A stretch of DNA of 64,000 nucleotides, from IMG/VR virus record IMGVR_UViG_3300035498_000530, positions 158,732 through 222,731 of that record, one strand, 5' to 3'. Made by a program: the position numbers and the translations under genes. Positions 16,851-53,397 of the stretch are shown here, piece after piece. The stretch is from a virus (Duplodnaviria; Caudoviricetes). The notes under the pieces are model-generated. The model was given only the letters and a program-made list of their open reading frames with translations. It searched no databases and was not told where the DNA came from. Within the stretch, counting starts at the first letter, position 1. The number at the start of each line of letters is the position of its first letter.

Positions 16851-18398
16851 TTAATCATCAAAGAATATTATAGGAGACATAGGTCTCTTAGATTTTCTCT
16901 TCGGATTTTGTTTCCATCTATCTATTTCATCTAACTTCTGATATATAATATTATCATTATATTTTTCTGTAGAACAACTAGTAGCATACTTCTCAAATAT
17001 AGGTTCTTTAGCATAATAATATTTTCTGGTTTGGTAAAATCCGGTATCAACTAATTCTCTATATGAAGTATTTTTATCTCTAGTTCTTCCTAAAGTTTGC
17101 CTCGCAATTACCTCTGATTTAAAAGGCTCAGCAAGTACGATTGTCTCTTTTAAGCCTTTTATATCCATGGCAGCACCACAAGACTTGGTAGTTGATAAAA
17201 TGACATCTTTTTCTAATTGCTCTTGCTTAGTGCTCTTATCAGATACAGATGTAAATATACCAACTCTACCATAAAAATCTGGACAATTTTCCATTATCCA
17301 ATCATATACATATTTTATAGCATCATTTGTTCCTATATAAACTAGAACTTTACCATCTACTTCTGTTCTTATATGATGCATTAATATCATAAGCATATTC
17401 TGAAAATTCTCTTGTTTTACTACATAATTAGTATACTTATTTCTATCAATACCATATATTCTATTAGAACAGAATTTCATGTCTTTTGGTGTTGGTTCAG
17501 AATTATAGAACATTGCTATATATTCTGTCCTAGGATCTAGATCTTCATCGAACATATCTAGCTTAGGAACATTCTTAAAATATAACTTATATAAAGCATT
17601 CTCATCTTTATCACTCCTTGCTGGGGTCGCAGTAAGATATAATGTAAGATAAGTATTACTAGCATAATCTATCTTGCACATATTATCAAAATTAAGATGG
17701 GCTTCATCATAAATCTTTATACATAATTTCAAGAATCTAAACAATTCTCCAATACTTTCCCAACTGGTATTCTTAGCATAAGTTTCTAATGTCTGATGAG
17801 ATACAAGATATATTTTATATCTATCTATCAATTTAGGATTATTAAGAAGCTTATGTATATCAGAAGTTCCAGTGATATGACATATTTGTTTTTTGGTTAT
17901 ATCAGTATATTCTTGTATACGAACTTTCCACTGATTTAACCATTCTACAGAACTGGTTATTATTATTGCAGGTACACTTAGATATGCTACAGCAGCAATA
18001 GTAATATATGTCTTACCAAATCCTGTAGGACAAGCTATTAGCTTTTGAGAATAATCATTAGTCCAACTATACTCTTTATTACCTAGAATAAATCTTAATG
18101 CTTCAGATTGTCTATCATCTCTAGGTAATGTTTTAATCATAGTATCAGATGTTTTCATAAAATCATCTGTTTTAGCAAAAGTTGCTTTTGCTTTAACTTG
18201 ATTTTCTACATACCATATATCTATACCTCTGGGGAGATATAGAATACATTTCTCAGGATCATACTTAGCACATTTGAAATTAAGTGAATAATTTACCGGA
18301 TCCTGTATTATGAAGAATGATTCAAGTCTGCTACAATCTCCATAGTGGTAATCATTTACCACTATGGATGTTTGTCTAACTTCAATTTTGTTTTCCAT
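16851..18398 (-). CDS. Superfamily 2 DNA helicase (UvsW/Rad25-like, DEAH)
   Basis: CPTGFGKT (Walker A), YDEAH, LTATP, QTLGRTR. Confidence 0.9.
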   Translation of the reverse strand: MENKIEVRQTSIVVNDYHYGDCSRLESFFIIQDPVNYSLNFKCAKYDPEKCILYLPRGIDIWYVENQVKAKATFAKTDDFMKTSDTMIKTLPRDDRQSEALRFILGNKEYSWTNDYSQKLIACPTGFGKTYITIAAVAYLSVPAIIITSSVEWLNQWKVRIQEYTDITKKQICHITGTSDIHKLLNNPKLIDRYKIYLVSHQTLETYAKNTSWESIGELFRFLKLCIKIYDEAHLNFDNMCKIDYASNTYLTLYLTATPARSDKDENALYKLYFKNVPKLDMFDEDLDPRTEYIAMFYNSEPTPKDMKFCSNRIYGIDRNKYTNYVVKQENFQNMLMILMHHIRTEVDGKVLVYIGTNDAIKYVYDWIMENCPDFYGRVGIFTSVSDKSTKQEQLEKDVILSTTKSCGAAMDIKGLKETIVLAEPFKSEVIARQTLGRTRDKNTSYRELVDTGFYQTRKYYYAKEPIFEKYATSCSTEKYNDNIIYQKLDEIDRWKQNPKRKSKRPMSPIIFFDD

Positions 18399-20581
18399 TA
18401 TTCATCACCATTCAACCAAACCTCAGAAGTTACTAATTCTGGATTTGTAATTAATTCTATAGGACTTATAGGCCTATGTTTCTTAGTACTCTTTGGCTTT
18501 TCATAGTCTATATCATTTTGTGGATGTACTTTGACAAAATCATCATACATACTAGAACCATGTTTTTTGAATGTCAAAGGAGATACTAAATTCTTAGAGA
18601 ACTTTTGATACATAAATGACTTTATTGGAGATGGATTCATCATCAATGCTTGATCCAATGTCAATATAGTATAATCCTCATTAGGATTTTCCCAATTAGG
18701 CATCATAAATACATCATTAGCAGATCTCATTTGATTAGATAATAATACTTCATAATGAATTGCCATAACTGAAATATTACATTCCATCTGAGTCTGAATC
18801 ATTTCTTGTAAGATCTGATTTTTATCCATAGATGTTGTTACATCTTTCTTATTGAGAATATCACTAATCCTATACAATGAACGACTAAGTTCATTATTCT
18901 GAATCTTGATACAGAAGATATCTACACCTTCAAGTTCACTTAATGGTATTATTATCTTATCACCATCAATACCTTTACCATATTCTCTGATAGCTCTATT
19001 CAAATCACTAGTTATATAAAGTTTATCCTTTTCTTTAGTAGTGATTGGATATTCATTAACGCCATCTATTATAGTAAATCTTGTTACATACTCATTGTAT
19101 ACTTCGCTATATCTTGAGTTCATAGCATATTCATCATAATCCTCAAGTTTTTCTGACATAGAATATGCTGCTTGTGCATACTCATCATCATTTTCCAATT
19201 CGATATCACTCTTATAAACCTCAAGGAATTGGTTTTTAATATATTCGCAGTCGTTCAATCTTAAGGTATTTCCATCAACGGTTATCCATTCTTTAAAACT
19301 ACCTTCCCAATCCATAGCTACCACAGATGCTCTAAGCAAATGTTTAGCAGAAAGAAGTCTTTGAGTTAATATAGAAGTCAAAGACTCTGCTGCATTCTTT
19401 CCTGGATTTATATGTCTTAAACTATATGCTAAGTTACCATAGCACTTATAGCATATACCTTTTCCTTTGGCATGACTAGCACAAGTCATCGGACTTCTGA
19501 GATATATAGTCATACCAATGAGATGATAATCATCATCTTTGATAATTCTTTCAACTCCACCTGGATTCATTCTATACCATCTATCTCTAAAGAAAGATAA
19601 CATTTTTTCTGAAATTATTGTTATCATTATAAAGTTCTTTGTACAGCAATCATAGTGAGGGTCTGGATGTATTTTTGTATCTACATTATTCAGACCAACT
19701 ATTCTTGCCAAATGTCCTGAGGTTCCTATATTATCTTTATTGATAATCTGAGCTTGTCTACCTACAGAGGCATCTATAAAGATATCTTCAAGAGTCTCTA
19801 AACCTCTATTCATGAATGATTTATTTATAGAATATTCAAATATTCCTCCATGACCATCTGGTTTAGGACCTATATTAACAGCTACTTCTTTAAACTGAGC
19901 TGGGTTAATACCTTCACCGGTTCTAAAAGAATCAGCAATACAGAAATCATATCCAAGATATTTCTTTGCATCTTTGATATGCTCTATAAGTTTCTTAGTA
20001 TATTTCATACCAACATCTGGTACATCTTCTATTGGAACATCGCTTAAATCAAGATGCATCAAATCATTGAATTCTTTATCCTTTTGCATAAGAAAGATAA
20101 AGTCTTCATTACACATTGTATTACATAAATACATCTGAAAGTTTGCTATATCCAATAATCTATATATAGAATCATCTATAGTATTATTTATTATTACTGG
20201 ATCCAATAATGTTCTATTTGGATCTATATGATTCTTATCTATCCACTCCTTAATAGAATTAGGAGTAATATCTTCTGGGAAATATAAATTATTTGAATGT
20301 ATTCTTCTTCCTACATTAACTATCATTCCCCAGAGTATCATATTAAACCATAAGTCTTGTATAGTCAATCTACAAGGACCTTCTGGAAATATTACTTCTA
20401 CTTTGACAGATTGGCACCATTCTGTTTCTATACTATCCATCATTATATTCAATATTCCATCAACGTATCCTTTCCAATTAGAACTATTGACTTCATCTGT
20501 TATTATTGTTTGATATCCATAAGTTGCTAATGGAGCCATACAATAATAGTTTTCGTACTTTGTACACGGTGTCATACTCAT
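18398..20581 (-). CDS. Non-virion RNA polymerase beta' subunit, C-terminal part
   Basis: Bridge helix TSGHLARIV. Zn site LRSPMTC...GICYKCYG. Trigger loop TQRLLSAKH. IHYEVLLSNQMR. Early promoter at 20613-20621. Confidence 0.88.
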   Translation of the reverse strand: MSMTPCTKYENYYCMAPLATYGYQTIITDEVNSSNWKGYVDGILNIMMDSIETEWCQSVKVEVIFPEGPCRLTIQDLWFNMILWGMIVNVGRRIHSNNLYFPEDITPNSIKEWIDKNHIDPNRTLLDPVIINNTIDDSIYRLLDIANFQMYLCNTMCNEDFIFLMQKDKEFNDLMHLDLSDVPIEDVPDVGMKYTKKLIEHIKDAKKYLGYDFCIADSFRTGEGINPAQFKEVAVNIGPKPDGHGGIFEYSINKSFMNRGLETLEDIFIDASVGRQAQIINKDNIGTSGHLARIVGLNNVDTKIHPDPHYDCCTKNFIMITIISEKMLSFFRDRWYRMNPGGVERIIKDDDYHLIGMTIYLRSPMTCASHAKGKGICYKCYGNLAYSLRHINPGKNAAESLTSILTQRLLSAKHLLRASVVAMDWEGSFKEWITVDGNTLRLNDCEYIKNQFLEVYKSDIELENDDEYAQAAYSMSEKLEDYDEYAMNSRYSEVYNEYVTRFTIIDGVNEYPITTKEKDKLYITSDLNRAIREYGKGIDGDKIIIPLSELEGVDIFCIKIQNNELSRSLYRISDILNKKDVTTSMDKNQILQEMIQTQMECNISVMAIHYEVLLSNQMRSANDVFMMPNWENPNEDYTILTLDQALMMNPSPIKSFMYQKFSKNLVSPLTFKKHGSSMYDDFVKVHPQNDIDYEKPKSTKKHRPISPIELITNPELVTSEVWLNGDE

Positions 20582-20627
20582 TTTCTTTTCCTCCTTTAAG
20601 TATTCTAAATATATAATATCTAAATAC

Positions 20628-22748
20628 TCACAGCTTTAAAATGTTTGAATAGTTTATATTAGCTTTATTAAATCTATAAAGCCCTATACTATCCAATGGG
20701 AAGTTCTTTATATTATCATTCACAATAGAACTATAATCAATAAACTCGATTATCCATTGTGGTACTGGCTCTCCAATTGGAAGAGCTACAGAATCTATTT
20801 CAGAACTAAACTCAGTATATTCATTCATGAGTTTTATGATTTGCTCATATTTCTTTGGATTATCTACACTGAGATGTGCTATATTTTCTCTATTTATAGA
20901 TACCTTTATGATATCAATAGAATTTCTTGCACTTAAATCTAATGCTTCATATCCTTCATCTCTCAAAGCATTATATACTATACTAGCTTTAATACCTTGA
21001 ATACTCATCGGCTTAGGATAATTATGCATAGCTTTTACTGTTAAAGGCTTATAATAACTCTTATCGCCTTTTTGAAGCTGAGATATTATACCTTTCTCAA
21101 ATATAATAAGCTTCTTTAATACTGTCAATGGATTAATCTTATCAACGTCAAGAATATCATCTTTTAATATCTTTTGAAGTTGTTTCTTAGCACCCTCTGA
21201 CAATGTGTTTTTATTTATAGGTAAACCCATTATTGCTAATGACTTAGACTTAGATACTGGATTTCCCTCTTGGAGTTCTCTGATATCAGCATAGTTTTTC
21301 TTACCATCCGTTGCTAATAATCTCTTGAATAAGAACTCATTTTTCATTATTATCATACACTTATGAGTCTCAGGATCATAGGAATAACTATTCTTTGTAT
21401 ACCTTTCCATATAATCAACTATAAGTGCTGAACCAATATATCCCATTATATTTATAATAGAATGCCTTAAAGAATCTTGCGGTATAAGATATATAGGATT
21501 TTGAAGTCTTTCTTTCTCCAATATCTCATCATCTACAAAACTATAATCTATTTTACCCTTAATTTCTTTAATAGGATTTATAGTTTCGTAATCACCAAAT
21601 TCATCTGCCTTAATAAACTTAATAGGATCATATAGCCAATGGGCTATATGAATATCTTCTTCTTTGATAAGTTCAAGTACAAATCTATACCAAGCATCAA
21701 GTGATATGATATTACTATCTGTATCTGTAACTATATCTATTGCTCTTGGCATTATTTCTACTCTATCTAATCTATCAATATAATGATGACCATAATATAC
21801 ATATTCCTTTACGATATCCAATACAGTATCCAATTCCACTTTGATTTCTTCTGGTGGTTTATTCGGATTAAGGAATGGTTTCTTAAGCATCTTAAGAAGA
21901 TTTATAAGAGATTTCTTCATTGTAGAATTTAGAAAGAAGCTATAAAGATTATTCTTATAATATAATCTATTTATATCTTCTTGTGATAAACTCTCAAGAA
22001 TATTCATAACTATTTGCATATCTTTATCAGTTGGAGTCCAATAGAATCCTGCTGTTGACATAATCTTATACCAACATTCCTCTACTGTTATATCTTCATC
22101 TAAGATATCTAAGTCTTTAAATACTCTTTCATTCTTTTCTCCTATGACGTTATGAATGAATGTAATAATTTCATTCAACGAACCAAACTTTACGTTATTA
22201 GCCAAGAATGATTCAAAGAATAATAAAGATGCAGAAGTATATGATCTACCCTGTGTAGTAGTACTTTCTGCAACATGCAAGTTATAAAATAAACAATTAG
22301 GCTGACCCAATGCACCATATAAGGCATTTGCATCGATCTTTGCCAAAAGCTGAACTAAGTTATATTTCTGAAACATTTCTGATCCAACCGGATACTTAAA
22401 CATTTCTTTTTTAGCTTTAGTTCTATTGTCTATAAACTTCTGTAATAATTTTGAGAATGGATTATCCATCTCAGAATGATGATACCACATAACACCTGCT
22501 GATGTTATGATAGGCTTTCTGTTTTCAAAGTAATTTACAATCTCTAAACCATCTGTATCTACTGTTTGATTTAAGTAGTTATTATAGATTTTGAGACTAA
22601 AATTCTTAAATCTTTTATTAATAGAATAATCTACTGCTGAGTTTAAAGCTTCATACGACATCTCAGGATTATTCAGTTTTAACATGTCTATTGCAATATT
22701 TTTATACCTTTGTATTGCACTAGACTCCAAAAAATCTTGTTCATTCAT
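20628..22748 (-). CDS. Split family-B DNA polymerase, C-terminal part (motifs B and C)
   Basis: KIDANALYG (motif B), TDTDS (motif C), KKNY. No exonuclease domain and no motif A. Late-type promoter at 22774-22785. Confidence 0.88.
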   Translation of the reverse strand: MNEQDFLESSAIQRYKNIAIDMLKLNNPEMSYEALNSAVDYSINKRFKNFSLKIYNNYLNQTVDTDGLEIVNYFENRKPIITSAGVMWYHHSEMDNPFSKLLQKFIDNRTKAKKEMFKYPVGSEMFQKYNLVQLLAKIDANALYGALGQPNCLFYNLHVAESTTTQGRSYTSASLLFFESFLANNVKFGSLNEIITFIHNVIGEKNERVFKDLDILDEDITVEECWYKIMSTAGFYWTPTDKDMQIVMNILESLSQEDINRLYYKNNLYSFFLNSTMKKSLINLLKMLKKPFLNPNKPPEEIKVELDTVLDIVKEYVYYGHHYIDRLDRVEIMPRAIDIVTDTDSNIISLDAWYRFVLELIKEEDIHIAHWLYDPIKFIKADEFGDYETINPIKEIKGKIDYSFVDDEILEKERLQNPIYLIPQDSLRHSIINIMGYIGSALIVDYMERYTKNSYSYDPETHKCMIIMKNEFLFKRLLATDGKKNYADIRELQEGNPVSKSKSLAIMGLPINKNTLSEGAKKQLQKILKDDILDVDKINPLTVLKKLIIFEKGIISQLQKGDKSYYKPLTVKAMHNYPKPMSIQGIKASIVYNALRDEGYEALDLSARNSIDIIKVSINRENIAHLSVDNPKKYEQIIKLMNEYTEFSSEIDSVALPIGEPVPQWIIEFIDYSSIVNDNIKNFPLDSIGLYRFNKANINYSNILKL

Positions 22749-22828
22749 TGAAGTTTCCTCCCTTTCTTTCTTGTATTTAAATGTTTTTGGACCTGTATAA
22801 ACTTAATTAAATCACATTTACTTAGAAT

Positions 22829-38357: not shown

Positions 38358-38930
38358 CTAGATATATAGATACTTATAATATGATGTAACACACATATTT
38401 TTCTTTTTTGTAATAGTATACTTTACTATGAATGTGCCATTATCTGAATCTAATATTTGTAATGAAAGTTTATCAGACTTTGCTAATGGAACCATTCCTT
38501 TGAATATATAAAATCTATGATTATCTATTACTACAAGAACAGCACCATCCTTAGACTTTATATTAAAATACATATCACTAAATATCTGTGTATCGCTCAC
38601 ATTAATAATATTTACATAGTTGCCAAATATGCACTGATTATACATATTAATTAGCATATTCTTATTTAATACTATATTTGGCAAAAACATAATATCTTCT
38701 ACAGTATAATATTCCATATTCATATCTGATAATGCCTTAATATATGATAATGAGTTATATAATTCTTTATCATATATAGTAGTTTCTATTACTCTAATAT
38801 GAGTAAAGTTCTCATCTGTTCCTATCAGGATTCCAGATGGTATTAAATAGAAATATTCTGTTTTAAGTATTTTTACATACTCAATTAATTCATCGAGTGT
38901 ACTCTTACTCATTTCTTTATAATTATTCAT
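38358..38930 (-). CDS. Hypothetical protein coupled to DNA polymerase, possibly a sliding-clamp-like fold
   Basis: Overlaps the polymerase stop codon. N-terminal helix/strand pattern is reminiscent of PCNA/gp45; function is speculative. Confidence 0.5.
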   Translation of the reverse strand: MNNYKEMSKSTLDELIEYVKILKTEYFYLIPSGILIGTDENFTHIRVIETTIYDKELYNSLSYIKALSDMNMEYYTVEDIMFLPNIVLNKNMLINMYNQCIFGNYVNIINVSDTQIFSDMYFNIKSKDGAVLVVIDNHRFYIFKGMVPLAKSDKLSLQILDSDNGTFIVKYTITKKKNMCVTSYYKYLYI

Positions 38931-41006: not shown

Positions 41007-41912
41007 ATGGGATATTTTTCTAATCTATTTGAGACACGAGATGAAAGACGTGTAGCAGAAGTAGATAATGTTGAAATTGTAGATGCAGCTCCACCTAAAA
41101 AGAAACGTGGTAGACCTGCTGGTAGTAAGAATAAAACTGATAATGATAATGAAGGATATACAGAAACAAGTCAGAATAGTTTGACTATGCTGCAATCCAA
41201 TACACCATATGAATCTTCATATGAATCTACTAATAATGCACTCAAAACTGCAGTTGTTCAGTTAGATTATTTGAACAATGAAGTTATGGAACAGATAAAA
41301 TATATAAAAGATTCTAAGACACTTAAGAAAAAGTATGATTATATCTCTAATCTTTCTGAAGTGTCCAGTGGTATTATAAGTAGTAAGATATCTGCTCTTA
41401 GAGAACTTAATAGCACAATTACAAAATGTCATGATCTTGAACTTAAGCGTGCTAAAGATATGAAAATATCTATGGATACTAAGAGTGATGATGAAAGACT
41501 TATGGATATGTATAATGCATACATATCTGCTCCTATGGGACAAACATATAACTTTATTCCACCGCAGTTGGAGCTTGTTCAAGCTAATCCTAATGGAATA
41601 AATAGAATGATTGTCGATGAAGGAACCATGTATGATCAGTACCAAGCAAACAAAACTCCAGAGCAGAATCTTATGTTGCTTGCTGATGATCCTAATATTA
41701 AAACGGTAGTCGTATATGACCAAGGAACTGGTCAAAGAAGATTTGATGTTGTAGATATGAGAAATGGTCAAAGTGTTCCTAATATGCCACTCCCCGATCC
41801 AGCATTCTTGGATGATACAACAATCAATCTTAAGACAGGTACTGCAAGAAACAGTAATATAAATATGAACTATCCACTTATTGTAACTGGTTCGGATCTT
41901 AGTAAATTTTAA
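41007..41912 (+). CDS. Late protein with an AT-hook-like motif and coiled coil
   Basis: PPKKKRGRPAGSKNK at residues 29-43; late promoter AACA-TTCAAG-TA at 40968-40979. Confidence 0.65.
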   Translation: MGYFSNLFETRDERRVAEVDNVEIVDAAPPKKKRGRPAGSKNKTDNDNEGYTETSQNSLTMLQSNTPYESSYESTNNALKTAVVQLDYLNNEVMEQIKYIKDSKTLKKKYDYISNLSEVSSGIISSKISALRELNSTITKCHDLELKRAKDMKISMDTKSDDERLMDMYNAYISAPMGQTYNFIPPQLELVQANPNGINRMIVDEGTMYDQYQANKTPEQNLMLLADDPNIKTVVVYDQGTGQRRFDVVDMRNGQSVPNMPLPDPAFLDDTTINLKTGTARNSNINMNYPLIVTGSDLSKF

Positions 41913-42220: not shown

Positions 42221-44890
42221 TTAATAATGATAAATGACGTTACCATTTATCTCCTTCTTGCCATTATTCCTGAGTACTATAACATCCACATCGGAATTCA
42301 TGATTTCATTGTTATGAGATATGATTATGGCTTGATTAATACTCAATTTGTTCAATAGTTCGTGCAAGAAGTTAACGAACATAGTTCTATTGAAATTATC
42401 AAGGCCTGCGTCTATCTCATCTAGTCGTGGGATATTAAGCTTCGTTGAACTCTGGTATAATAAGCTAAATTGAATAACAGTACTAACCATACATATCTGT
42501 GAATTACTCATACTAGTAATATCATCAGTCTTGAGTCCTGCCACCGAGCATGGAATTTTGAACTCTTTCTCATTAATTACGAATGGGAGAATCTCGATTT
42601 CTCCTCCAAACATAAGACCAAGAAGATCATTAGCTATACTAAGAATCTTATTCATATAAAGATTAAGGAATATAAGCTGAATACCACTATTCGGAGAACT
42701 ATAATATTTTATAGCTTCTATCTTGTCATACTTAGCTCTATATTCTGCTAACTCATTTGTATAATCGGTTATAAGACTTAATGAATGTATATACTTATCT
42801 CTTTCATCTAACATAGGCCCTAACTCTGCATCTAATCTCTTTAATGCTAAATCATTAGACTCTATAGATGAAATAAGATTATTAATAGTAATCATATCCT
42901 TTTCAATCTGATCATACTTCTTCTTAATTTCTTCCTTATAAGACTTTATTTCTTCAAGCCTTAATAAGGATTTCTGTACATTCTCGAATGCCAATATATG
43001 TTCATCTAATTCGAGTTTGCTATTCTTATGCTTGGAAATTTCAGTTTGATGAACTTCCATAGTATTCTTTAAACTGTTTATATTACTATTGATAGTTTCT
43101 ATATCGCTAGTAATCTCATCTATTATTTGTTTCTTATATTCATAACTCTTCAATTCGTTCTCAATCGTAACTAGTCTAGCTTTAGCTTCTCTGTTCAAAT
43201 CTAATACATTGGCTATATCTAGATAAGAATATAAAAGTTCTATCTCTCTAAAGTCTATACCATTGAAAAGTTTCCTAAATAACAGATCTATATCAGTAAA
43301 AATTTCTCCACCTGGGAGTTTAACAAGTATATTGCTTATTGGTTCGATACTACTTATAATAGCATCTATATAAAACTTACATTTTTCTATTACCTTTAAG
43401 TTATTATACATGTTAAGATTTACATCTATGGATTTCTCAAGTTCTTCTTTACTAGATATAAGCTCATTATATCTTTCTTCGATATTAGACGAAGATATCT
43501 CCACTGCTTTTGATATAAATGGGCAACTATCTATAGTACATCCAGAAGGTCTTTTATCAAGTATTGATAATATAGATAATTGCGCTTCTGCTGTATTGAT
43601 ATCACTATTTATACTATCAAGTGAACTCTGTAATTCTTTAACCTTCTTTTCATATGCACCAGGGTCTTCATAAGTACCACTTAATACTATCTGAGTTGTA
43701 TCATAATCAAAGTTATCCTTCAATGAGTTTATTGATTCTTTAATACCCATCAAAGACTTAACTCCTGCTACCAACTCAGAACTAGTTATAGTAGTATCTA
43801 TACTAAGACCCATATTAGATATCATACCATTATATTTAGTAATATCATTCTTGAGTTTATTATTCTCCTCTAAAATAGAAGAATAATGTTCATCAGACTT
43901 TAAGTTATTCAGCTTAGTCTGCTTATCTATTATAGCTTGAGATTCTTTCTCCACTTGTTCAATCAGAGAGTTGTTCTTTTCGATCATAGTCTCTATTATT
44001 GTTTCTTCTCTAATTGATTCTTTTCTCATATCTTCAAGCATAGAGTTAACTTTATCAAGACTCATATTCTCCATTATAGGAGCCTTAATTGTAGTTTCTT
44101 CTAATATAAATGAATTAAGCTTTTCATCATATTCCTTTGCTTTAGATTGAATGGATTTATCTGGATCGATCATATCTATTCTTGCTCTTGCATCAGATAT
44201 AGCTTGCATTATATTATCTCTTTCTCCACTAATAGAGTTTATTCTATTATTAAGAGATACTAATGCTCCATTAATCATCTCTGGATCTCCTAAGTTTCCT
44301 AACTTAGAAGTTATATTATTAATCATAGATTTAAATATAGATGATCGTTTGCTTAAAGTTTTATGAATATTGTTATAAACCTCAAGATTACTCAATATAT
44401 AATTTATATATTGCTTTCTCTCTGCCGGTTTCTTAGTTGCAAGTCCACGATTCTCACAACCAATTTCGGACAAAGAAACAAAGTTAGAATCTAGTCCTAA
44501 CTCTGTATATAGTATATCTTTACAACTAGAAATATTCCCGTTAGGATTCAGTTCAACAACCTCTCCACAAATTGTTTTCCTGATAAATCCTTTGGTATTC
44601 TCTCTTTTTCCATTAGACCCGATTTGATGAACATATTCTATTTCGTACATAGTTCCATCACTATCTATATATCCTATAATCTTTCTAGCACTTTTGTTTG
44701 GCATAAAGTTTATACTATTATCAGGTAAAGGATTAAGAGCACGAATCAACGTGCTCTTTCCGCTACCATTATCTCCTATGATCATTATAAGATCATGGTT
44801 ACATTTAGTGAAATCTATATCGATTTCTGCAAGATTCATACCACTATATATACCTATATAGTTTTCCAATCTTAATCTTGTTAATCTCAT
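42221..44890 (-). CDS. sbcC: SbcC/Rad50-like SMC ATPase (T4 gp46-like)
   Basis: GDNGSGKST (Walker A), long coiled coils around a central CTIDSCPF hook, SMSNSQ signature, LDEIDAGLD, ISH. Confidence 0.9.
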   Translation of the reverse strand: MRLTRLRLENYIGIYSGMNLAEIDIDFTKCNHDLIMIIGDNGSGKSTLIRALNPLPDNSINFMPNKSARKIIGYIDSDGTMYEIEYVHQIGSNGKRENTKGFIRKTICGEVVELNPNGNISSCKDILYTELGLDSNFVSLSEIGCENRGLATKKPAERKQYINYILSNLEVYNNIHKTLSKRSSIFKSMINNITSKLGNLGDPEMINGALVSLNNRINSISGERDNIMQAISDARARIDMIDPDKSIQSKAKEYDEKLNSFILEETTIKAPIMENMSLDKVNSMLEDMRKESIREETIIETMIEKNNSLIEQVEKESQAIIDKQTKLNNLKSDEHYSSILEENNKLKNDITKYNGMISNMGLSIDTTITSSELVAGVKSLMGIKESINSLKDNFDYDTTQIVLSGTYEDPGAYEKKVKELQSSLDSINSDINTAEAQLSILSILDKRPSGCTIDSCPFISKAVEISSSNIEERYNELISSKEELEKSIDVNLNMYNNLKVIEKCKFYIDAIISSIEPISNILVKLPGGEIFTDIDLLFRKLFNGIDFREIELLYSYLDIANVLDLNREAKARLVTIENELKSYEYKKQIIDEITSDIETINSNINSLKNTMEVHQTEISKHKNSKLELDEHILAFENVQKSLLRLEEIKSYKEEIKKKYDQIEKDMITINNLISSIESNDLALKRLDAELGPMLDERDKYIHSLSLITDYTNELAEYRAKYDKIEAIKYYSSPNSGIQLIFLNLYMNKILSIANDLLGLMFGGEIEILPFVINEKEFKIPCSVAGLKTDDITSMSNSQICMVSTVIQFSLLYQSSTKLNIPRLDEIDAGLDNFNRTMFVNFLHELLNKLSINQAIIISHNNEIMNSDVDVIVLRNNGKKEINGNVIYHY

Positions 44891-45171
44891 TTTGATTTCC
44901 CCCTAAACTTAGAATGTATAATATCTGTATCAAACAGTGGTTTTGGTAATCCGTCTGTCCAATTGATTAAATACGTTCTATTACATTTTGTACACTTTAT
45001 ATATGATAATGGGTACTTCTCTTGATTTAGAAATTCTAAAACCTGAGAAGTGCTAAAATTTCTAACCATAGCTGGATAGCCTATTGGTTTATTATACATA
45101 TTATATATTTCCATTGTATCTGTCCCACAGTCAGGGCAGTATGTTCTTTTTAAGAATACAATAGGATTCAT
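44887..45171 (-). CDS. Small zinc-ribbon protein
   Basis: CPDC...CTKC. GAGGTG RBS favours MNPIVF as the start. Late-type motif at 45183-45194. Confidence 0.7.
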   Translation of the reverse strand: MNPIVFLKRTYCPDCGTDTMEIYNMYNKPIGYPAMVRNFSTSQVLEFLNQEKYPLSYIKCTKCNRTYLINWTDGLPKPLFDTDIIHSKFRGKSK

Positions 45172-45207
45172 TTCCATCACCTCAATATAAAGTTAGTAGA
45201 ATAGTAA

Positions 45208-45453
45208 TTACTTCTCTTTTGTATACTTGATGTCTTTAATATACCCTTTAGTAACTACAACTGTATCTACATATCTACTGCCATTTGGGTCTTTAACAAT
45301 ATCTGTATACTGTTTAGCCACACCATTGACAATAACCTGACCAAGAGAGAGGTTTTTACCTCTCTTTTTAGCCAGTTCTCTTTTCATATCCATCTGTTCT
45401 TTAGAGAATACGAAATATACATATTCGTTAGACTGTAGTGCCATTATCATCAC
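45208..45453 (-). CDS. Hypothetical small protein
   Basis: ~80-aa ORF overlapping the RNAP beta-N gene end; AGGAGGTG RBS. Confidence 0.65.
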   Translation of the reverse strand: MMIMALQSNEYVYFVFSKEQMDMKRELAKKRGKNLSLGQVIVNGVAKQYTDIVKDPNGSRYVDTVVVTKGYIKDIKYTKEK

Positions 45454-47218
45454 CTCCTAAATCTAATGTGATTAAGCCATCATCAGTCATATCAATTGAA
45501 TTCTTTTCTGCAGTCTGATCGATAACTATTATAGGTTTTATCAACTGCTTCATAGACTGAATAGAATCATTTATTATACACTTAGATTCATCTCCAATTC
45601 CTAAAACAGCTTCTTTAAACTCTATAGCCTGTTTAACACCGATCATCTTTCTATAGTCTTCAACCATATTTGAAAAACTCTCATCCCATGTATGAGGTTC
45701 TTCAAATTCTGAAAAAGATCCATCATAGATATCTCCTGTTGGACACAATATTCCAGTAACACCAGGATCAGTATTAGAACTTGAATCAAGATCTAATCTT
45801 CCTAAATGCTCTGGATATACATATCTATATGACTTTGGTATAGTATTACCTTTCTTCTCTCCAATACCAGCAATACCTTTATAACTAAATTTCAACCCAG
45901 CATCATATACATCAAGATCGTTTACCATATTACGATAATTAACTAGTGTACATTTGGTTGATAATTGAGTTAATAGATAGTTTGGTTTAGTCACTATAGC
46001 TCTCTTGATATCCATTATATCTGCTCTTTTACCCAAATCTGATATTCTATATATACCCTTAGCAAGTTTCATAGCATATAAAGATGCTATATAATCTGCT
46101 TTACGTATTCTCTTTGTAGAAATATCAAGATTATCTTTCTGTCTAAGAGCATCAAACTCTGTCATTACCCATTTAATGATATGATAAGTATCACACTTCA
46201 TTTCCTCAGGTAAATGAATAGTTTCTTTTGTTATCTGATCATATATGAATTCAAATGAATCCAATATATTCAGACCTTTCTCATAAGAATTATTACTAAA
46301 CTCTGAACCTAAAGTATCTATCCAATATGCAGTTGTAAACATATTATCTATTTTGCTATTCTTGTTTATAGACAATATTGTATTATATACAAAAGACTGC
46401 ACTATTGTAGACCTTTCAAATATGAACTTGGCTACACTTACATAGATATCATTCTTCATAAATGTAAAGAAGTTATCATCATTAGGATCATAGTCAGTTA
46501 TACGAACTACATGAGATGGTATATGGAATAACTCTAAAGTTCCATACCATCCATACTTAGCAAGAAAATACTTAAATATAGATATAGTCTTACTAAACAT
46601 ACCACCTTTATAATAATATATAGAAATCTGTTCTTTCTTTGTAGTCTTGACAGATTCAATAGTTCTATAGATTCTTATAGCCATAAACATCGTCTTCAAT
46701 GTAACGCTCTGAACCTTAGAATTGCTATTACTATTATTATAAGTAGAAGCATCAACGATTTGATACATAGCACTATATTCATTACCAGATATCTTAAAGT
46801 AATACTTATTTATAATTCTTGGTACTGATATATAAACTCTAATCTCTTCTTCTTTCTCTTTGATGCCAATATGATAATCAACCACAAGAAGTTTTATATC
46901 AGAATCTTTAAGATTTATATAATCATAAACTGATGTAATCTTCTTTATTGGTTTTCCATCTTTACCTTTTTTAACTTGAGATTCATCATAAGCTTTAAGA
47001 GTATCTCTAATCTCTTTATAATCTTCTATTACAGTGAAATTAGTAACCTTAATTACGAATGAACCATTTCTTTGACAAGATAATATAACTTTCTTCAAAG
47101 CTTCAATTATATCTTCATCTTTAAAATTAAACAGGGATTCATTAAACTTATCAAAATGCTCATCCCCGAACATAGATACAAGATCACTCTGTGTCATTAT
47201 CTTCAGCCCCTTCTCCAT
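45428..47218 (-). CDS. Non-virion RNA polymerase beta subunit, N-terminal part
   Basis: YFKISGNEYSAMYQI (cf. RpoB FIINGTERVIVSQL) and RYVYPEHLGRLDLDSSSNTDPGV (cf. RDVHPTHYGRVCPIETPEG). The true start may be MTQSD. Confidence 0.85.
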   Translation of the reverse strand: MEKGLKIMTQSDLVSMFGDEHFDKFNESLFNFKDEDIIEALKKVILSCQRNGSFVIKVTNFTVIEDYKEIRDTLKAYDESQVKKGKDGKPIKKITSVYDYINLKDSDIKLLVVDYHIGIKEKEEEIRVYISVPRIINKYYFKISGNEYSAMYQIVDASTYNNSNSNSKVQSVTLKTMFMAIRIYRTIESVKTTKKEQISIYYYKGGMFSKTISIFKYFLAKYGWYGTLELFHIPSHVVRITDYDPNDDNFFTFMKNDIYVSVAKFIFERSTIVQSFVYNTILSINKNSKIDNMFTTAYWIDTLGSEFSNNSYEKGLNILDSFEFIYDQITKETIHLPEEMKCDTYHIIKWVMTEFDALRQKDNLDISTKRIRKADYIASLYAMKLAKGIYRISDLGKRADIMDIKRAIVTKPNYLLTQLSTKCTLVNYRNMVNDLDVYDAGLKFSYKGIAGIGEKKGNTIPKSYRYVYPEHLGRLDLDSSSNTDPGVTGILCPTGDIYDGSFSEFEEPHTWDESFSNMVEDYRKMIGVKQAIEFKEAVLGIGDESKCIINDSIQSMKQLIKPIIVIDQTAEKNSIDMTDDGLITLDLGGDDNGTTV

Positions 47219-47828
47219 CTGTCAGTATAATTTTTATTTCCTTTCCTATGGGATTTGGAACATCTGGTCCTTTATCCCTAAACACTAATTCAGCCTCTAT
47301 ATCTAATGCTTTACACATTGTTTTGATCTTACTCAGTGTTATATTTGGTCTCTGCAATATACGTTTATCGTTAGTAAAGTTAGGACCAAATCGTCCTTCG
47401 TACTTATCTAAATCGATATTCTTATTACATATTGCCTCTTTCATTAACCTCATCTCTGGTGCATCTGTATCCTTTATTATAGGAGTATAGATATGATCAG
47501 GTGAAGTTAATATACTTCTTTCTTGTCTTGATAACTCATTCTGTCTATCTATTATATCCTTCATTGTAGATATATTATCGAAATCTATAACATCTTTATC
47601 AGAATAATTATGAGCATCATTTTCTGATGGGTCATTATAAATTAATAATGCATCCCCATCAATTCTAAACCCAGGTCTCGGATCTGTCTGGGTTCTCATT
47701 GGATATAATAATCCATCCTTTTGAATTGCAACATCATCATCTATAGAAAACTTACTTCTGTTTTCTATATATTCATCCTCACTCATAACACTAAATATCT
47801 TGTTATGAATAACTCCTTTATTATACAT
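47184..47828 (-). CDS. Hypothetical protein with a C-terminal HTH-like region
   Basis: NITLSKIKTMCKALDIE resembles a Cro/XRE C-terminal helix pair. Confidence 0.55.
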   Translation of the reverse strand: MYNKGVIHNKIFSVMSEDEYIENRSKFSIDDDVAIQKDGLLYPMRTQTDPRPGFRIDGDALLIYNDPSENDAHNYSDKDVIDFDNISTMKDIIDRQNELSRQERSILTSPDHIYTPIIKDTDAPEMRLMKEAICNKNIDLDKYEGRFGPNFTNDKRILQRPNITLSKIKTMCKALDIEAELVFRDKGPDVPNPIGKEIKIILTDGEGAEDNDTE

Positions 47829-47901
47829 GTCTTATTATCCTCCTTCTCCAAATCTAAAAAATAAATAGCTCGTGCATAAAACTGCACGAGCCTTGTATTT
47901 A

Positions 47902-48618
47902 TTAGAGTGAAACTATAGGTGTAATGAGTCCATTACTATTTCTTCTAGCATCGAAATCAATTGGAAGCAATGTCAATCTCATTGCTGCCTTCTCACCCAT
48001 ACTGATTGTAGAAGCATTACTTACACTAATAGGTTCTGACTTAGCAATAACCTTCTTAATATTTGCACCTGGAGTGATTGCGAAAATCTTATCATCACCT
48101 TCTACAGCCACAGAAGCTGTGAAAAGATCATCCTCAATACTCATTTCCTCTTCTTCATTAGCATTCTTATCAAGCCAATTATTAAGAGTCTTTCCAAATG
48201 ACTGACTCAAGCTTACAAGAGCAATTGAGTCAAGATATCTGAAATGATTTCTCTTTGCAGCTGCTTCAGCAATTGCAAATTGAAGCTGTGAATCATACTG
48301 ACTCATTACTGATGTATCTTCAGTAATATCATCTTTATTAACAGACATTGACACAAGCCAGTTATTAACTTCTTCATCTTCTGAGTCTTGATTATATTCT
48401 ACAATCATACTCAACAAAATTTCATTTTCTGAATTTTTAAGTACGGCAGCTACTTTCTTATTCTTGTCCTTCTCTGATGATAAGAGTTTAGCCATACCAT
48501 AAATAATGGAATCGAATACCTTATAAGCTGATGTTGCTGATAATTCATATGTGTCATCTAATATAAGTGACAAATAATCATCCATAAATTTTGAATCTTG
48601 TAATTTAACTTTTGACAT
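47902..48618 (-). CDS. Hypothetical early protein
   Basis: Strong RBS; ATATATTAT at 48687-48695. Confidence 0.7.
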   Translation of the reverse strand: MSKVKLQDSKFMDDYLSLILDDTYELSATSAYKVFDSIIYGMAKLLSSEKDKNKKVAAVLKNSENEILLSMIVEYNQDSEDEEVNNWLVSMSVNKDDITEDTSVMSQYDSQLQFAIAEAAAKRNHFRYLDSIALVSLSQSFGKTLNNWLDKNANEEEEMSIEDDLFTASVAVEGDDKIFAITPGANIKKVIAKSEPISVSNASTISMGEKAAMRLTLLPIDFDARRNSNGLITPIVSL

Positions 48619-48768
48619 TTTTTGTTCCTCCTTAAATTAAAAAAAGTATAGTATTACAATTGATCAAGAAAATCTCGATCAGAGTAATAATATATATTTA
48701 TTAAAAAGTTTTAGACTGTGTAATTTTTTACACAAACAAATGAGTTGATGTAATTCAACCCATTTGTG

Positions 48769-51087
48769 TCACTTTAGATACTTATTTGGATTCTCAACAA
48801 AGTCATTATATTTAACTATAGTAGTTCCATAACTAATAGCCTTTGTTAATTTTGAACTTGTATATCCAGGAATATTTGGAATAATCAATATGTCTGTTTT
48901 CTTAGTGACAGCACTATCATTTGCATCGTGTCCGTCTCTATTAAGTTTATCACATAATATTTGATCCCTTATTCCTGAGAAACGTATTACCTTTCCAGTT
49001 GGTTCTGTAGAGCCAGTTGTCTTAATAACATTTGGCATATCCTGTATAAGAATTATATCCTGGAAGAATAACTCACGTTCATTAATAATAGTAGATGCTA
49101 TAGTTGGTCCAATACCATTTATAGCTACTAACTTATTATACAAATCTACATCCATTAGTAAAACTAATTCTTCTATTGATATTACTTTAAGAATCAGTTT
49201 CCAAGTTTCTATAGATATATTAGTGAATCCTAAAGATCCAATAATTCTATAGTCGAAGATTGGTTCGTTCTTTAAAGACTCTACCTGATCTATAAATTTC
49301 TGGGAAGTCAATTCTCCTAATATAGGAACAAGTTCGTCTTTCTTTATTTTAAACAATTCATTTAATGATGATTTGTTTATTCTTGTTAAGAATTCATCAC
49401 TAAATCCTTTGAAACCTAACTTCTTAACCATATTCACCATTCTAGATATCTTACGACCCGAACATCTTGCATTAGGACACATAATACTTTTCTTAGATGG
49501 TGACATTATTAATTCAGATCCACATTCGGGGCAATGTGTTATAAATTGCTCAGGTGGATTTGGATTATTTCTATTATGCTCATTGTCTGGCTTTGTGACA
49601 TATGGCATAACATCATTTACATACTCTACATCAATTATATCTCCTACTTTGAGTTGAAGACTATTGAATCTATTTAGAGAATGTCCAGAAGACTTTGTAT
49701 GGACTCCACCATAAAACTCTACTGAATTATAATTGATCATTGGAGTTATAATACCATTCTGACCAATTGTATAGGAATATCCTGTAAAGATAGTTTGCTT
49801 CTTCATTGTATTAAATTTGATAGCTATACTATACTTGTTTACAGAATTCTCTCTTCCTAAAGCCTTTATTAAATCATCATCAATATATGAGACAACAACT
49901 CCATCATACATAAATGGAATTATTGATCTCATATACTCAGCTTCTTGAACAAACTTATTAACTTGGAATAGTATTTCTATATAATTACCTTCGATAACTA
50001 CATATCTTAAATACTCCCCACTGTTATAATACTTATTCAAAAACTCAACCTCTGTTAATCTGTCTACATCTTCTATAGAAGTTGCCAGAGGTACCAAGGT
50101 TATATAATCTCTGAACTGTCTAGCATCACTAGAACCAAACAATCCAATTATCGTATTCCTTGGATTTTTATACTCTCTGGAACGCATTGAGGCTATCCTT
50201 TCCATATTCATATATGTTATAATAGCCTCAAACTTCATTCCAAATGGCTTAGAAGTATCCACAACTCCTCTAGCGTGTCTAAATTGATACCCCTCCAATA
50301 TAGGAGTGATATCACTAGCCACGTCAAGTTCTGTATCTCCTCTAGTCCTTGCGGAGATTACGTGATCTGTGACCTCAGCCTCGACTGATATCCCATCGTA
50401 CTTAAGTTCGCATATCATACGAAATCTTCTGTTTGGATCCAAAATACCCATCTGAATATGCTTCTGAATGAAGTCTCTTTCAAATATGCTAACTTTTGGA
50501 TCATCAAACACTCCACGTTCTATAGCTTGCGAATTAAGAACAAACTTGCATTTGTCCAAAGTCCCCACCAGCTTAGGATACATGTGTGCTGTATTCAAAG
50601 TCCTTTTGCTTATATAATAATCCTCAATTATTGGAGTTTTAAGATAACTATATTTATTAAACTCTGGGACTCTAAATAGCTGTTCATCATTCAAAAATAA
50701 TGACTCATCTATTTTTTCTTGCTCCAACTCCAGTATAGGATTTATCTTTCCCTCTACTGAAGTTTGGAGTGAATCACTAACTTGTGATTCAAATATTACA
50801 GGTATGGCTCCTACAGGATAGGAGCCTCTGTACTTAGAATATAATACAATGAGCAAATCATATATTCCATCTTCCAAGAATAAGATTTCTCTATCAGTAT
50901 TATTATATAAGATATTTGAAATATCCAATATATCTTTCAATGTATCTAGATCTGTTTCATCTAGAACTGGTTTGTTTAGAAGGTCTACCGCTACGGTATT
51001 TATTTCTTTAGCATTACTAAAGTTTATAGCTTCGACCTTCCCACATCGTAGATCATTAAGTATATCTTTAATAATCATAGTTCTCAC
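48769..51087 (-). CDS. ligA: NAD-dependent DNA ligase
   Basis: ELKYDGIS adenylation motif, TRGD, DGVVV, IAIKF, CPECG...CPN..C zinc finger, HhH motifs and BRCT. The start may be 51078. Confidence 0.93.
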   Translation of the reverse strand: MRTMIIKDILNDLRCGKVEAINFSNAKEINTVAVDLLNKPVLDETDLDTLKDILDISNILYNNTDREILFLEDGIYDLLIVLYSKYRGSYPVGAIPVIFESQVSDSLQTSVEGKINPILELEQEKIDESLFLNDEQLFRVPEFNKYSYLKTPIIEDYYISKRTLNTAHMYPKLVGTLDKCKFVLNSQAIERGVFDDPKVSIFERDFIQKHIQMGILDPNRRFRMICELKYDGISVEAEVTDHVISARTRGDTELDVASDITPILEGYQFRHARGVVDTSKPFGMKFEAIITYMNMERIASMRSREYKNPRNTIIGLFGSSDARQFRDYITLVPLATSIEDVDRLTEVEFLNKYYNSGEYLRYVVIEGNYIEILFQVNKFVQEAEYMRSIIPFMYDGVVVSYIDDDLIKALGRENSVNKYSIAIKFNTMKKQTIFTGYSYTIGQNGIITPMINYNSVEFYGGVHTKSSGHSLNRFNSLQLKVGDIIDVEYVNDVMPYVTKPDNEHNRNNPNPPEQFITHCPECGSELIMSPSKKSIMCPNARCSGRKISRMVNMVKKLGFKGFSDEFLTRINKSSLNELFKIKKDELVPILGELTSQKFIDQVESLKNEPIFDYRIIGSLGFTNISIETWKLILKVISIEELVLLMDVDLYNKLVAINGIGPTIASTIINERELFFQDIILIQDMPNVIKTTGSTEPTGKVIRFSGIRDQILCDKLNRDGHDANDSAVTKKTDILIIPNIPGYTSSKLTKAISYGTTIVKYNDFVENPNKYLK

Positions 51088-51117
51088 CTCTCTTATGATT
51101 ATAATATACTATTATAA

Positions 51118-53397
51118 TCAACTTTCGATTTCTTCATATTCTTCTTTCTCCTTTTGTCTATTCATAGCTTCAGTTGAAAGAAGATATTTCTGATCTTCCT
51201 CATAGATATACTCTATAGGTTGAGATACAATAGGAACTCTTCTTCTATTTATCTCCTTAGGAAGACTCCTAGGATCATAGACTTCACCCTTACCAATTGG
51301 TATTATTGGGCTCCTATTTTGTATATGATATCCAAATTGCATTGGTGGTAATATAGTAGCAATTGGATTAATAATTTTCTTCTTAATCTTCTGGAACAAA
51401 ATCCTGATTCCTATAACCTTGAAATAACAGTTAATAGTTTCAGCATTTCTGTTCTTATCATTATCATTTACTTTTATATCGAAATTATATGGATCTCCTG
51501 TGGCAAGATTTTTTGCTCTTAATCTTGCATTTTGAGATGCAATATATTCCATTATAAGTTTCATTGTAACTCCAATTCCGGTATGAAGTAAATTTCCGAT
51601 TTCCATTTCACCAAATTTTACAGGTGTCTTAGATATTGTAGATTTGAAGTTCTTTGCATTCTTTGACCTTGAGTTTGCACTCTTTATATTAATAGCTGAT
51701 AAAGATGTTGCACTGAACTTTTCTTCAGCTCTCTGCTTTAATCTGTGTATATACTGATAAGCTATCAATAATGGTCTATTTGTTTGTACCATTCTTATTG
51801 AACCATCTGAACCCTTCATAGGAACAAATGCTCTTTGAGGTTTAGCGAATGGGAAAGCCTCATACAATTCAGCTAAAATATCTATTGTAGGGGATCCTGT
51901 TATTGGTTTCAAACTAACTATAAGTCCATCATCTACAACGATACTATTAAACAAGCACATCATTTCATCAAAATCATCATGAATTTTTTCTAATGTTTTA
52001 CTTATAAACTCTGCTTGTTCTGGATTTATTATCTTATAGAATTTAATTATCATTTCAAATGACAGATATATATCTAAATTATTATCTACTATGAAATGAA
52101 CAAGTGATGTAGCTACATGATTTATACTCATTTCATCGGTCTGACCATAGTTTTCTCTATTAGGCATAGTATTTATATTGAATATAAGTTCTGCCCTCTG
52201 ACCATTTGGTAGCATTGGCATCATTTCAGCTGGAAGTATAGATGATACTACACCCTTGCCACCATATCTATTACATATCTTGTCTCCAATTTTTAATCCA
52301 TTTCTTTCCATTACAGTTATTTTAATAACTGCATTTGAGAATTTCTTTTCATTAATATATTGCTTTCCTTCAAGTAAATCTTTGGAATTGTAATATACTT
52401 TTTGAGCTTCGTATTCAAGAGAACAGCCTTCTCTTAATACTAAATCATTTATAGTATCAACTACAGTTTGAGCAAATCTTCTCTGCTCAAGATAATACCC
52501 ATAGATTTGCTGATAATATGGATTTGTAGATATAAATTCTATATTATTACAACTTACATTAATATCAACAACTTGTCCTTTGATACTGTATTTATCATCA
52601 GACATCATTAATGTTTTCAAATTTCTATCAGATTGAGAATATAATATTTCATTCTTATTCTCTCTTCTTGTTCCCATAAGAATGCCATCATCATTGACAT
52701 ATTCATAAAGATCTGGAACTACTTTATATTCGCCATCTTTACCATATATATTGAGAGGCATATCATTTTCATTAAGTGTTATAACAACTTCATGGAATGT
52801 TGGAGACCCCATTTTATTTTGAGCAGGCTCTGATAAACGTATTCCATCTTCTGTTGTATCTAATGTTGCTACATAGCAAGTTAATAAGTTTACTCCGTCT
52901 TTTCTAAGTCCATTATCTTCAAAAGATGTACTAGTCCTAATAATACTTCCTTTATAAACTGTTTGACCTATATCAAGATCATCAAGATATGAATTATTAT
53001 ATCTATATCCATACTCTTCAGTAATATGCTTATAATCAGTTCTTTCTATCATACGCAATTCATTAGTAATTAGATTTTTAAGCAATACATAGTAGTGATT
53101 CATAGGAATATCTGTATTTAAAAATAAAGGTATCTTTGATACTACTGTATAATCATTATCATATACCTCATAAGATGATGAAAGCCTTCCTGCTTCTTTC
53201 ATATTTCCATGAGGTGCAACTTTTGGTACTTCTGCTTTTTCAAGTACCATTTTTTGGCTATTTTGTGCCGCAGCCATAATTTTTCTAGAACCAGAATTCA
53301 ATGTATTAAATGGATAATAACCATTTTTACCGGCAATCTGATCTAGATTCTTAATTCTATTTTTTGGCTCTAGCATCGATTCTTTAAAATTTTTCAT
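51118..53397 (-). CDS. Non-virion RNA polymerase beta subunit, C-terminal part
   Basis: SRKIMAAAQNSQ, TTEDGI, IGDKICNRYGGKGVVS, MPNRENYGQ, KFGEME. Early motif at 53450-53458. Confidence 0.92.
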   Translation of the reverse strand: MKNFKESMLEPKNRIKNLDQIAGKNGYYPFNTLNSGSRKIMAAAQNSQKMVLEKAEVPKVAPHGNMKEAGRLSSSYEVYDNDYTVVSKIPLFLNTDIPMNHYYVLLKNLITNELRMIERTDYKHITEEYGYRYNNSYLDDLDIGQTVYKGSIIRTSTSFEDNGLRKDGVNLLTCYVATLDTTEDGIRLSEPAQNKMGSPTFHEVVITLNENDMPLNIYGKDGEYKVVPDLYEYVNDDGILMGTRRENKNEILYSQSDRNLKTLMMSDDKYSIKGQVVDINVSCNNIEFISTNPYYQQIYGYYLEQRRFAQTVVDTINDLVLREGCSLEYEAQKVYYNSKDLLEGKQYINEKKFSNAVIKITVMERNGLKIGDKICNRYGGKGVVSSILPAEMMPMLPNGQRAELIFNINTMPNRENYGQTDEMSINHVATSLVHFIVDNNLDIYLSFEMIIKFYKIINPEQAEFISKTLEKIHDDFDEMMCLFNSIVVDDGLIVSLKPITGSPTIDILAELYEAFPFAKPQRAFVPMKGSDGSIRMVQTNRPLLIAYQYIHRLKQRAEEKFSATSLSAINIKSANSRSKNAKNFKSTISKTPVKFGEMEIGNLLHTGIGVTMKLIMEYIASQNARLRAKNLATGDPYNFDIKVNDNDKNRNAETINCYFKVIGIRILFQKIKKKIINPIATILPPMQFGYHIQNRSPIIPIGKGEVYDPRSLPKEINRRRVPIVSQPIEYIYEEDQKYLLSTEAMNRQKEKEEYEEIES

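Follow-up and report, generated by a model that had tools for sequence, protein, structure and literature searches.

A genome-specific peptide tag in the tails of replication and transcription proteins of an uncultured jumbo-phage clade, and its candidate clamp-fold receptor

The 64,000-nucleotide stretch of DNA analyzed here (the window) comes from an uncultured gut jumbo phage and encodes replication and transcription enzymes whose tails and linkers carry a short, repeated peptide motif, which we call a tag. The window is the minus strand of positions 80698–144697 of its virus record (G000), a single sequence of 167,464 bp with ~30% GC and an estimated completeness of 68%. Searches of Pfam and PHROGs identify an SF2 (ResIII/DEAD) helicase, both halves of a split family-B DNA polymerase (PolB-N and PolB-C), an NAD-dependent ligase, β pieces of a multisubunit RNA polymerase (RNAP), a UvsX-like recombinase, an SbcC-like protein, a PhuZ-like tubulin, and terminase, sheath and major head proteins. 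By contrast, the same searches find no match for the 81-, 214-, 238-, 239-, 301- and 355-residue proteins or for the 190-residue, predicted clamp-fold protein considered below as the receptor of the tag. The RNAP β-C piece is just 28% identical to its counterparts in Bacillus phages AR9/PBS1 and Staphylococcus phage S6; as judged from sequence, the window virus is a distant relative of AR9/PBS1, and phages of this type are the nearest cultured relatives of its RNAP pieces. Metagenomic relatives are numerous and come from gut and other samples. We compared the window virus with five of them (G001–G005, genomes whole or in part, hence six genomes including G000) and with metagenomic neighborhoods (L numbers); the IMG/VR relatives were retrieved with alignment queries, and single-protein locus searches of IMG/VR gave no match.

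In the window virus, the tag is built around the dipeptide PI; its spelling in relatives differs, as described below. A first-pass annotation of this DNA had proposed a shared PI-containing motif in the tails of replication and non-virion transcription proteins, and every peptide that it quoted is present where it was reported. The features that follow lie on the minus strand unless marked otherwise. The SF2 helicase (16851–18398) has a C-terminal tail (16854–16931) in which a basic run precedes one terminal tag at residues 506–513 (..SPIIFF..); its orthologs carry two to three tags of their own variant. The C-terminal tail (18401–18499) of the non-virion RNAP β′-C piece (18398–20581) bears a double tag, PISPIELI, at residues 704–711, and one own-variant tag occurs in this tail in each of G001–G005. 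PolB-C (20628–22748) has PI sites at residues 375, 392 and 418, the first two of which are the tags of an insert (21549–21641) located in a poorly conserved stretch ahead of the conserved divDNApol region. The C-terminal tail (38926–39078) of PolB-N (38923–40905) holds two to three tags, including those at residues 630 and 642, and relatives have three of their own variant. At the N-end (45145–45180) of a 97-residue Zn-ribbon protein (44887–45180), the tag MNPIVF includes residue 6, and the N-ends of Zn-ribbon paralogs elsewhere match the variant of their genome (PM, AIT, PPF or GM.Y). A single tag, KPIIVI, lies at residue 562 in the C-terminal tail of RNAP β-N (45431–45556). The N-terminal linker of the ligase (50608–50760) has tags at residues 117 and 152 that align and covary in all six genomes; local identity there is 0.29–0.40 compared with ~0.6–0.7 over most of the rest of the ligase. 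Finally, the C-terminal tail of RNAP β-C (51121–51390) contains three to four tags at residues 678–727, whereas the AR9 ortholog terminates at residue 665 and has no tail. This tailless ortholog and the low conservation of the linkers place the tags beyond the conserved cores of their proteins.

Other proteins of the window have a less certain relationship to the tag. The 238-residue protein ends in an extra tail (47905–48021) with tag-like sites at residues 219 and 234. This tail is found only in this genome, its homologs stopping ~40 residues earlier, and it is plausible that the two sites are tags. The 301-residue protein (41007–41912, plus strand) begins with MGYFSNLF here and with a tag in most relatives; an AT-hook-like RGRP run (..KKRGRPAGSK..) also lies near its N-end. 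The 239-residue protein (14856–15575) has an N-terminal tag in G001, G002, G004 and G005, and none is visible in the window virus. In the 355-residue protein, which has no homolog in the five relatives, the PI sites are internal. Of the sites in the original motif list, the one at PolB-C residue 418 falls away: because its stretch is conserved in all relatives whatever their variant, we do not count it as a tag. The same holds for PI-like ends that are fixed irrespective of variant, namely the N-end of the capsid protein and the C-end of a 252-residue protein, as well as for MKAF sites of a 409-residue protein, which are unchanged in genomes whose tag is not AF. These variant-independent sites serve as internal negative controls. 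The end of the 252-residue protein (window 9315–10073) resembles a tag, reading N-Q/L-P-[IM]-[IM]-x-T-V in all relatives, and by this sequence conservation behaves as a fixed structural end.

Is the motif more than a by-product of an Ile-/Asn-rich proteome? This concern was raised when the motif was first noticed, and the answer depends on where PI is counted. Genome-wide, PI is not enriched to speak of (143 observed versus 124.5 expected, 1.15×), and a naive test of terminal dipeptides is weak (odds ratio 1.75, uncorrected p 1.8e-3). PI is nevertheless both clustered and terminal: pairs no more than 30 residues apart number 24 versus 9.0 ± 3.3 in within-protein shuffles (z 4.6), and occurrences near protein ends number 44 versus 20.6 ± 4.4 (z 5.4). 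When the same shuffle test is applied across genomes, the dipeptide that stands out is each genome's own, with GM at z 12.7 in G001, AF at 5.5 in G002 and PI at 4.9 in G000; MV clusters with z 3.5 among the relatives. Other dipeptides are mostly near zero, the exceptions being AI (z 2.5–3.8 in G000–G002) and PM in G004. In the latter genome (230 kb), close PM pairs are clustered with z 5.6, in addition to PI with z 2.4.

The strongest evidence that these peptides share a function is that they change together. Metagenomes contain 195 β-C homologs, and all 120 of those listed (37–45% identity) end in a tail of two or three repeats, in which basic residues are followed by the pattern small-hydrophobic-x-x-x-small-hydrophobic-x-F/Y. 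The core dipeptide of these repeats varies by phage (PI, PM, PF, PV, AI, IM, GI and others), and unrelated proteins within one genome use the core spelling of that genome. For example, GM.Y occurs in G001 four times in β-C and three times each in PolB-N and the SF2 helicase; the PolB-C insert and the ligase linker have two copies each, and further copies lie in β′-C, at the end of β-N, and where the Zn-ribbon protein and two small proteins begin. G002 has AF at the same places, including three copies in the helicase. Further spellings are [SC]PI.F in G003, [KR]PI[IV] in G004, [KQP]M[VI].F in G005, AIT[KR] in L002 and PPF in L012. In short form, the cores seen across genomes are PI.F, PM.F, PF, GM.Y, AF, AIT and MV.F. 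In MAFFT alignments, the tag columns of the ligase linker and the PolB-C insert swap among PI, GM, AF and MV, whereas flanking conserved columns are constant; across the aligned genomes, the PolB-C tag columns read PI, GM, AF, PI~VI and MV. The first-pass annotation had made its proposal depend on conservation in orthologs, and relatives indeed carry the tag at the same places, each in its own spelling.

This covariation is significant by permutation. We counted words common to the tails of different protein families from the same versus different genomes, using 17 distinct genomes and six client families, and obtained 434 shared words versus 275.5 ± 18.7 expected (z 8.5, 0/5000 permutations). 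In the same test, control tails (UvsX, the ligase C-end, SbcC and the 214- and 81-residue proteins) gave z 1.9. A second set of 54 metagenomic loci, in which the PolB-N tail was compared with the N-end of a neighboring ~300-residue protein, gave z 7.1, a value that is inflated by near-duplicate loci. In the same metagenomic set, PolB-N compared with the Zn-ribbon protein at 10 loci gave z 2.9; these loci carry 6-kb flanks, and β-N tails mostly lie beyond them. Synonymous codons vary at tag positions (Pro, CCT 11 and CCA 5; Ile, ATT 8 and ATA 8; Gly, four codons), and the constraint is therefore on the peptide rather than on the DNA. A DNA-level cause, such as a promoter or repeat within gene ends, is ruled out by this codon variation together with the internal tag sites. 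Neither composition nor a DNA-level cause can account for the covariation. These data show the motif, where it is placed and how it covaries. In the literature that was searched, we found no account of a tag that spans a proteome and is recoded from lineage to lineage in this way. The PolB-N tail itself is not uniform across the metagenomic neighborhoods. In one sub-clade (L107–L109, L115–L121 and L146), a longer, well-conserved C-terminal domain (..FNNFTEIF..DGYLYSKPK) replaces the variable tagged tail. In L112, L133–L136, L149, L151 and L160, the PolB-N frame ends early, at ~470–510 residues, and the tblastn match goes on, which suggests that the polymerase gene is interrupted by an inserted element such as an intein, an intron or a homing endonuclease.

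The consistent clients of this network are RNAP β-C, β-N and β′-C, PolB-N, PolB-C, the SF2 helicase, the ligase and Zn-ribbon proteins. Relatives add a divergent DnaB-like helicase (PF20307), whose gene is missing from the incomplete genome of the window virus, a separate 229-residue RNase H (PF00075) with C-terminal tags in G002–G004, and the 239-, 301-, 248- and 559-residue families. UvsX, SbcC, the chaperonin, capsid, terminase, sheath and one β′-N-like RNAP piece that we examined are untagged. The clients are those typical of a sliding clamp, plus RNAP. The first-pass annotation had suggested a common docking tag that recruits DNA-acting proteins to one hub, and genome-specific covariation across proteins supports that suggestion. 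We regard it as highly probable that the motif is a docking signal common to these proteins and that its partner co-evolves with it.

A candidate for this partner is encoded beside the polymerase. The start of the gene for the 190-residue protein (38358–38930) overlaps the stop of PolB-N by 8 nt, and an open reading frame (ORF) of 180–210 residues directly follows PolB-N in all six genomes, where it is syntenic; it is also found in 64 of 80 metagenomic loci, and the family has 696 representatives at 50% identity. A clamp-like fold is predicted. An AF2 model from a 143-sequence alignment has a pLDDT of 84.8 and a pTM of 0.81, and in an exhaustive structural comparison (VIA) with 48,161 PDB representatives, the top 38 matches are exclusively sliding clamps or processivity factors, with Z 8.3–4.9 over 160–175 of the 190 residues, except for a split PCNA that is covered over 80 residues. 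The best clamp match is T4 gp45 (Z 8.3, 163 residues, rmsd 4.0); others include β clamps, 9-1-1, PCNA, UL42, UL44, BMRF1 and PF-8, and the first unrelated match is partial, with Z 4.5. A shallower first model gave the same clamp-dominated result. The ORF has no Pfam match and thus no fused RNase H domain. No match was found by tblastn among 50,697 cultured-phage records. AR9, which lacks the β-C tail, also lacks a match to the clamp profile, and tagging of this kind thus seems to be peculiar to the metagenomic clade.

Several observations weigh against the 190-residue protein as a clamp that reads the tag. A VIA Z of ~8 is middling by the calibration of the tool itself. Foldseek searches of PDB with both models gave no clamp match at E ≤ 1e-3; clamps dominate the list for the first model, and for the second they are mixed with hotdog-fold proteins. 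With ~9 strands and three long helices, the model falls short of a complete two-domain clamp subunit, which makes ring formation doubtful. The clamp-loader family PF13177 was found in none of the five genomes searched, and matches to AAA (PF00004) are not conserved across genomes. An hhalign comparison of the clamp-fold profile with the PhiKZ protein gp155 (Rhc) gave a probability of 0.65%. Canonical clamp-binding consensus sequences are of the PIP-box, bacterial and T4 types, and the motif here, small-hydrophobic-x-F/Y with a spelling that varies by genome, fits none of them. Clamp tethers do not usually occur in several copies per client, as in β-C with its three to four, or separately on three pieces of one RNAP. 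Moreover, the window virus has more degenerate tags than G001 does, and its 239- and 301-residue proteins and RNase H lack a clear PI tag. Weighing these points against fold, synteny and client set, we consider that the case for the 190-residue clamp-fold protein as the predicted receptor is evenly balanced.

Could the tags instead be addresses? As targeting or import signals, they would be recognized not by the clamp-fold protein but by a gate or importer of a replication compartment, which could be a nucleus-like shell or a factory positioned by tubulin. The individual tagging of each RNAP piece and of both polymerase halves, as if these were sorted before assembly, fits such a scheme, as do the conservation of a PhuZ-like tubulin nearby and the resemblance of the tagged set to the proteins inside the phage nucleus of chimalliviruses. 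The UvsX-like recombinase and SbcC would also be expected inside, however, and they are untagged, as is the β′-N-like RNAP piece mentioned above. Chimallin (PF25677) was detected in none of five genomes, one of them complete, at E ≤ 1, although this model derives from chimallins of Phikzvirus and might overlook distant ones. In addition, the chimallivirus literature that we searched makes no mention of a linear import signal. PhiKZ gp69, a PicA-type importer, has no Pfam family. Among the hubs named by the first-pass annotation, the clamp is thus favored by the clamp-fold gene that overlaps PolB-N and by the fit of the clients, whereas the import gate loses ground, weakened by the chimallin result and by the lack of tags on UvsX and SbcC. 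We judge targeting or import to be unlikely.

The tags might also bind one another. As homotypic β-strand stickers, they could draw replication and transcription enzymes into a condensate with no dedicated receptor. Self-recognition would by itself produce identical cores across clients, multivalency (two to four copies in β-C, PolB-N and the helicase) would favor a network, and the alternating hydrophobic-x-aromatic pattern would suit an extended strand. A leading Pro or Gly is poor for a steric zipper, however, and many clients carry a single tag, which fits a receptor better than a network. We find this proposal improbable.

That the tags dock on the host instead (on a chaperone, a protease adaptor or the DnaN β clamp, for example), with tag spelling tracking the hosts of the different phages, seems to us very improbable. 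There are precedents for phage proteins that bind the host β clamp, PDB 7EVP is among the fold matches of the 190-residue protein, and the pentapeptide with which bacterial proteins bind their clamp bears a loose resemblance to the hydrophobic-x-aromatic core. The pocket of the β clamp, by contrast, is highly conserved, whereas re-spelling of the tag is radical (from PI.F to GM.Y, AF or AIT) and uniform within each genome. The tags also have no leading Gln, and AR9, although its annotation includes both an NAD-dependent ligase and the β subunit of a non-virion RNAP, has no β-C tail. There remains only composition, in which PI-type dipeptides would simply be common in an Ile-/Asn-rich proteome with Pro-containing disordered tails; although PI is just 1.15 times as frequent as expected and its uncorrected terminal enrichment would fail correction for 400 dipeptides, the chance that this is the explanation is negligible, since it is contradicted by the clustering (z 4.6) and terminal placement (z 5.4) of a signal that is specific to each genome's own dipeptide, by tag columns that align across genomes, by cross-protein covariation (z 8.5 versus 1.9 for controls) and by replication at the 54 loci.

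The explanation that we favor, and hold to be somewhat more probable than its negation, is that the tags are read by a co-evolving receptor, most likely the clamp-fold protein acting as a hub. In this mechanism, the tag would be a short linear docking motif in which a hydrophobic residue is followed, after two variable positions, by a small one (P, G or A), a second hydrophobic one, one variable position and F or Y, often with basic residues before it and acidic residues after it, in the flexible tails and linkers of DNA-acting enzymes. One phage-encoded receptor would read all copies in a genome and co-evolve with them, which would explain why all clients are re-spelled at once. The receptor may be translationally coupled to PolB-N and could serve as a processivity or tethering hub, gathering enzymes for replication, nick sealing, primer removal and late transcription on replicating DNA. 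Functionally, such a hub would resemble T4 gp45 or PCNA, and it might be monomeric like HSV UL42 or PhiKZ Rhc. At its most far-reaching, this picture is of a private, rapidly recoded peptide code in an uncultured jumbo-phage clade, in which one clamp-derived hub physically couples a split polymerase, two helicases, a ligase and RNase H, with no intermediary, to the pieces of the multisubunit late RNAP; we offer that extension tentatively, as a possibility that is somewhat less probable than not.

There are several implications. First, the tag network shows which proteins of an uncultured jumbo-phage clade cooperate on DNA, from sequence alone, and places at least five proteins of unknown function in the DNA machinery. 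Second, if that tentative extension is correct, each lineage would have an orthogonal tag–receptor pair, which could shield replisome and transcription from co-infecting relatives or from mimics made by the host or by defense systems. Third, the mechanism makes a testable prediction, namely that late transcription by the multisubunit RNAP of a phage is physically linked to replication. The T4 paradigm for such a link is the gp45 clamp as a mobile enhancer, and we know of none for jumbo-phage RNAPs. Finally, the clade is a natural experiment in motif–receptor co-evolution, offering orthogonal peptide–receptor pairs and a direct route to the receptor, and it complements 2026 preprints on the clamp-like Rhc subunit of chimalliviruses.

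Other features of these genomes lie apart from the tag. The genomes of the relatives span 200–275 kb, and the contig names of several (L101, L103, L110 and others) refer to a human-gut metagenome. Outside the window, the record of the window virus contains a single ORF of 7,033 residues (G000:C1:21088–42189), whose homologs in relatives have 3,193–3,558 residues, and a Cpn60/GroEL-like chaperonin (PF00118, E 9e-24; G000:C1:147246–148961) that is kept in all five relatives. The PhuZ-like tubulin (phrog_4733, E 1e-8) is encoded at 55745–57073 of the window, on the minus strand; in relatives, its gene lies two genes upstream of the UvsX-like gene and adjoins a cell-wall hydrolase gene.

Among known systems, AR9/PBS1 phages resemble the window virus in their split multisubunit RNAPs and gene content (UvsX, ligase), but AR9 has a β-C piece with no tail, a ligase gene of 2,016 nt rather than 2,319 nt and no match to the clamp profile. 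The herpesvirus factors UL42 and UL44 also have a clamp fold that needs no loader and on which the tail peptide of a client docks, as is predicted here; they have a single known client, the polymerase, whereas the tag here is carried by some dozen clients, RNAP among them. In T4/RB69 gp45, PCNA with its PIP box and the bacterial β clamp, a short hydrophobic/aromatic peptide likewise occupies the ends or linkers of client proteins (polymerase, ligase, helicases and RNase H), and one hub serves many clients, just as a clamp-fold gene lies beside the polymerase here. The parallel extends to late transcription, because in T4/RB69 the motif is also found on gp33 and gp55. Nevertheless, the consensus here, small-hydrophobic-x-F/Y, lacks Gln; re-spelling between related phages is wholesale, with up to four copies per client; and the tags sit directly on multisubunit RNAP pieces rather than on adaptor factors, with no clamp loader found.

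A further parallel comes from PhiKZ/Goslar, whose split polymerase works with Rhc, a protein in which RNase H is joined to a clamp-like domain that is monomeric. Rhc touches the thumb and also a palm-insertion domain that the DNAP-N tail and a DNAP-C insert form together, and it is required for a subset of late transcription (PMC13648687, 10.64898/2026.10.01.755736). Both systems have a split family-B polymerase, a clamp-derived accessory protein (predicted here) and a connection to RNase H and late transcription; in the clade studied here, the RNAP pieces are tagged, and genomic association of the clamp-fold gene with the split polymerase is seen in 6/6 genomes. The two systems differ in that Rhc binds via a large folded interface, with no linear motif or multi-client network reported, and in that hhalign finds no profile similarity between the two proteins (probability <1%). 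Moreover, the clamp-fold protein here is encoded by a separate 190-residue gene overlapping PolB-N, and RNase H is likewise separate and is tagged. Fusion of RNase H to the clamp domain in PhiKZ, set beside a separate, tagged RNase H here, provides a gene-fusion argument for contact between RNase H and the clamp, and the DNAP-N tail and DNAP-C insert that contact Rhc match in position the tagged segments of PolB-N and PolB-C.

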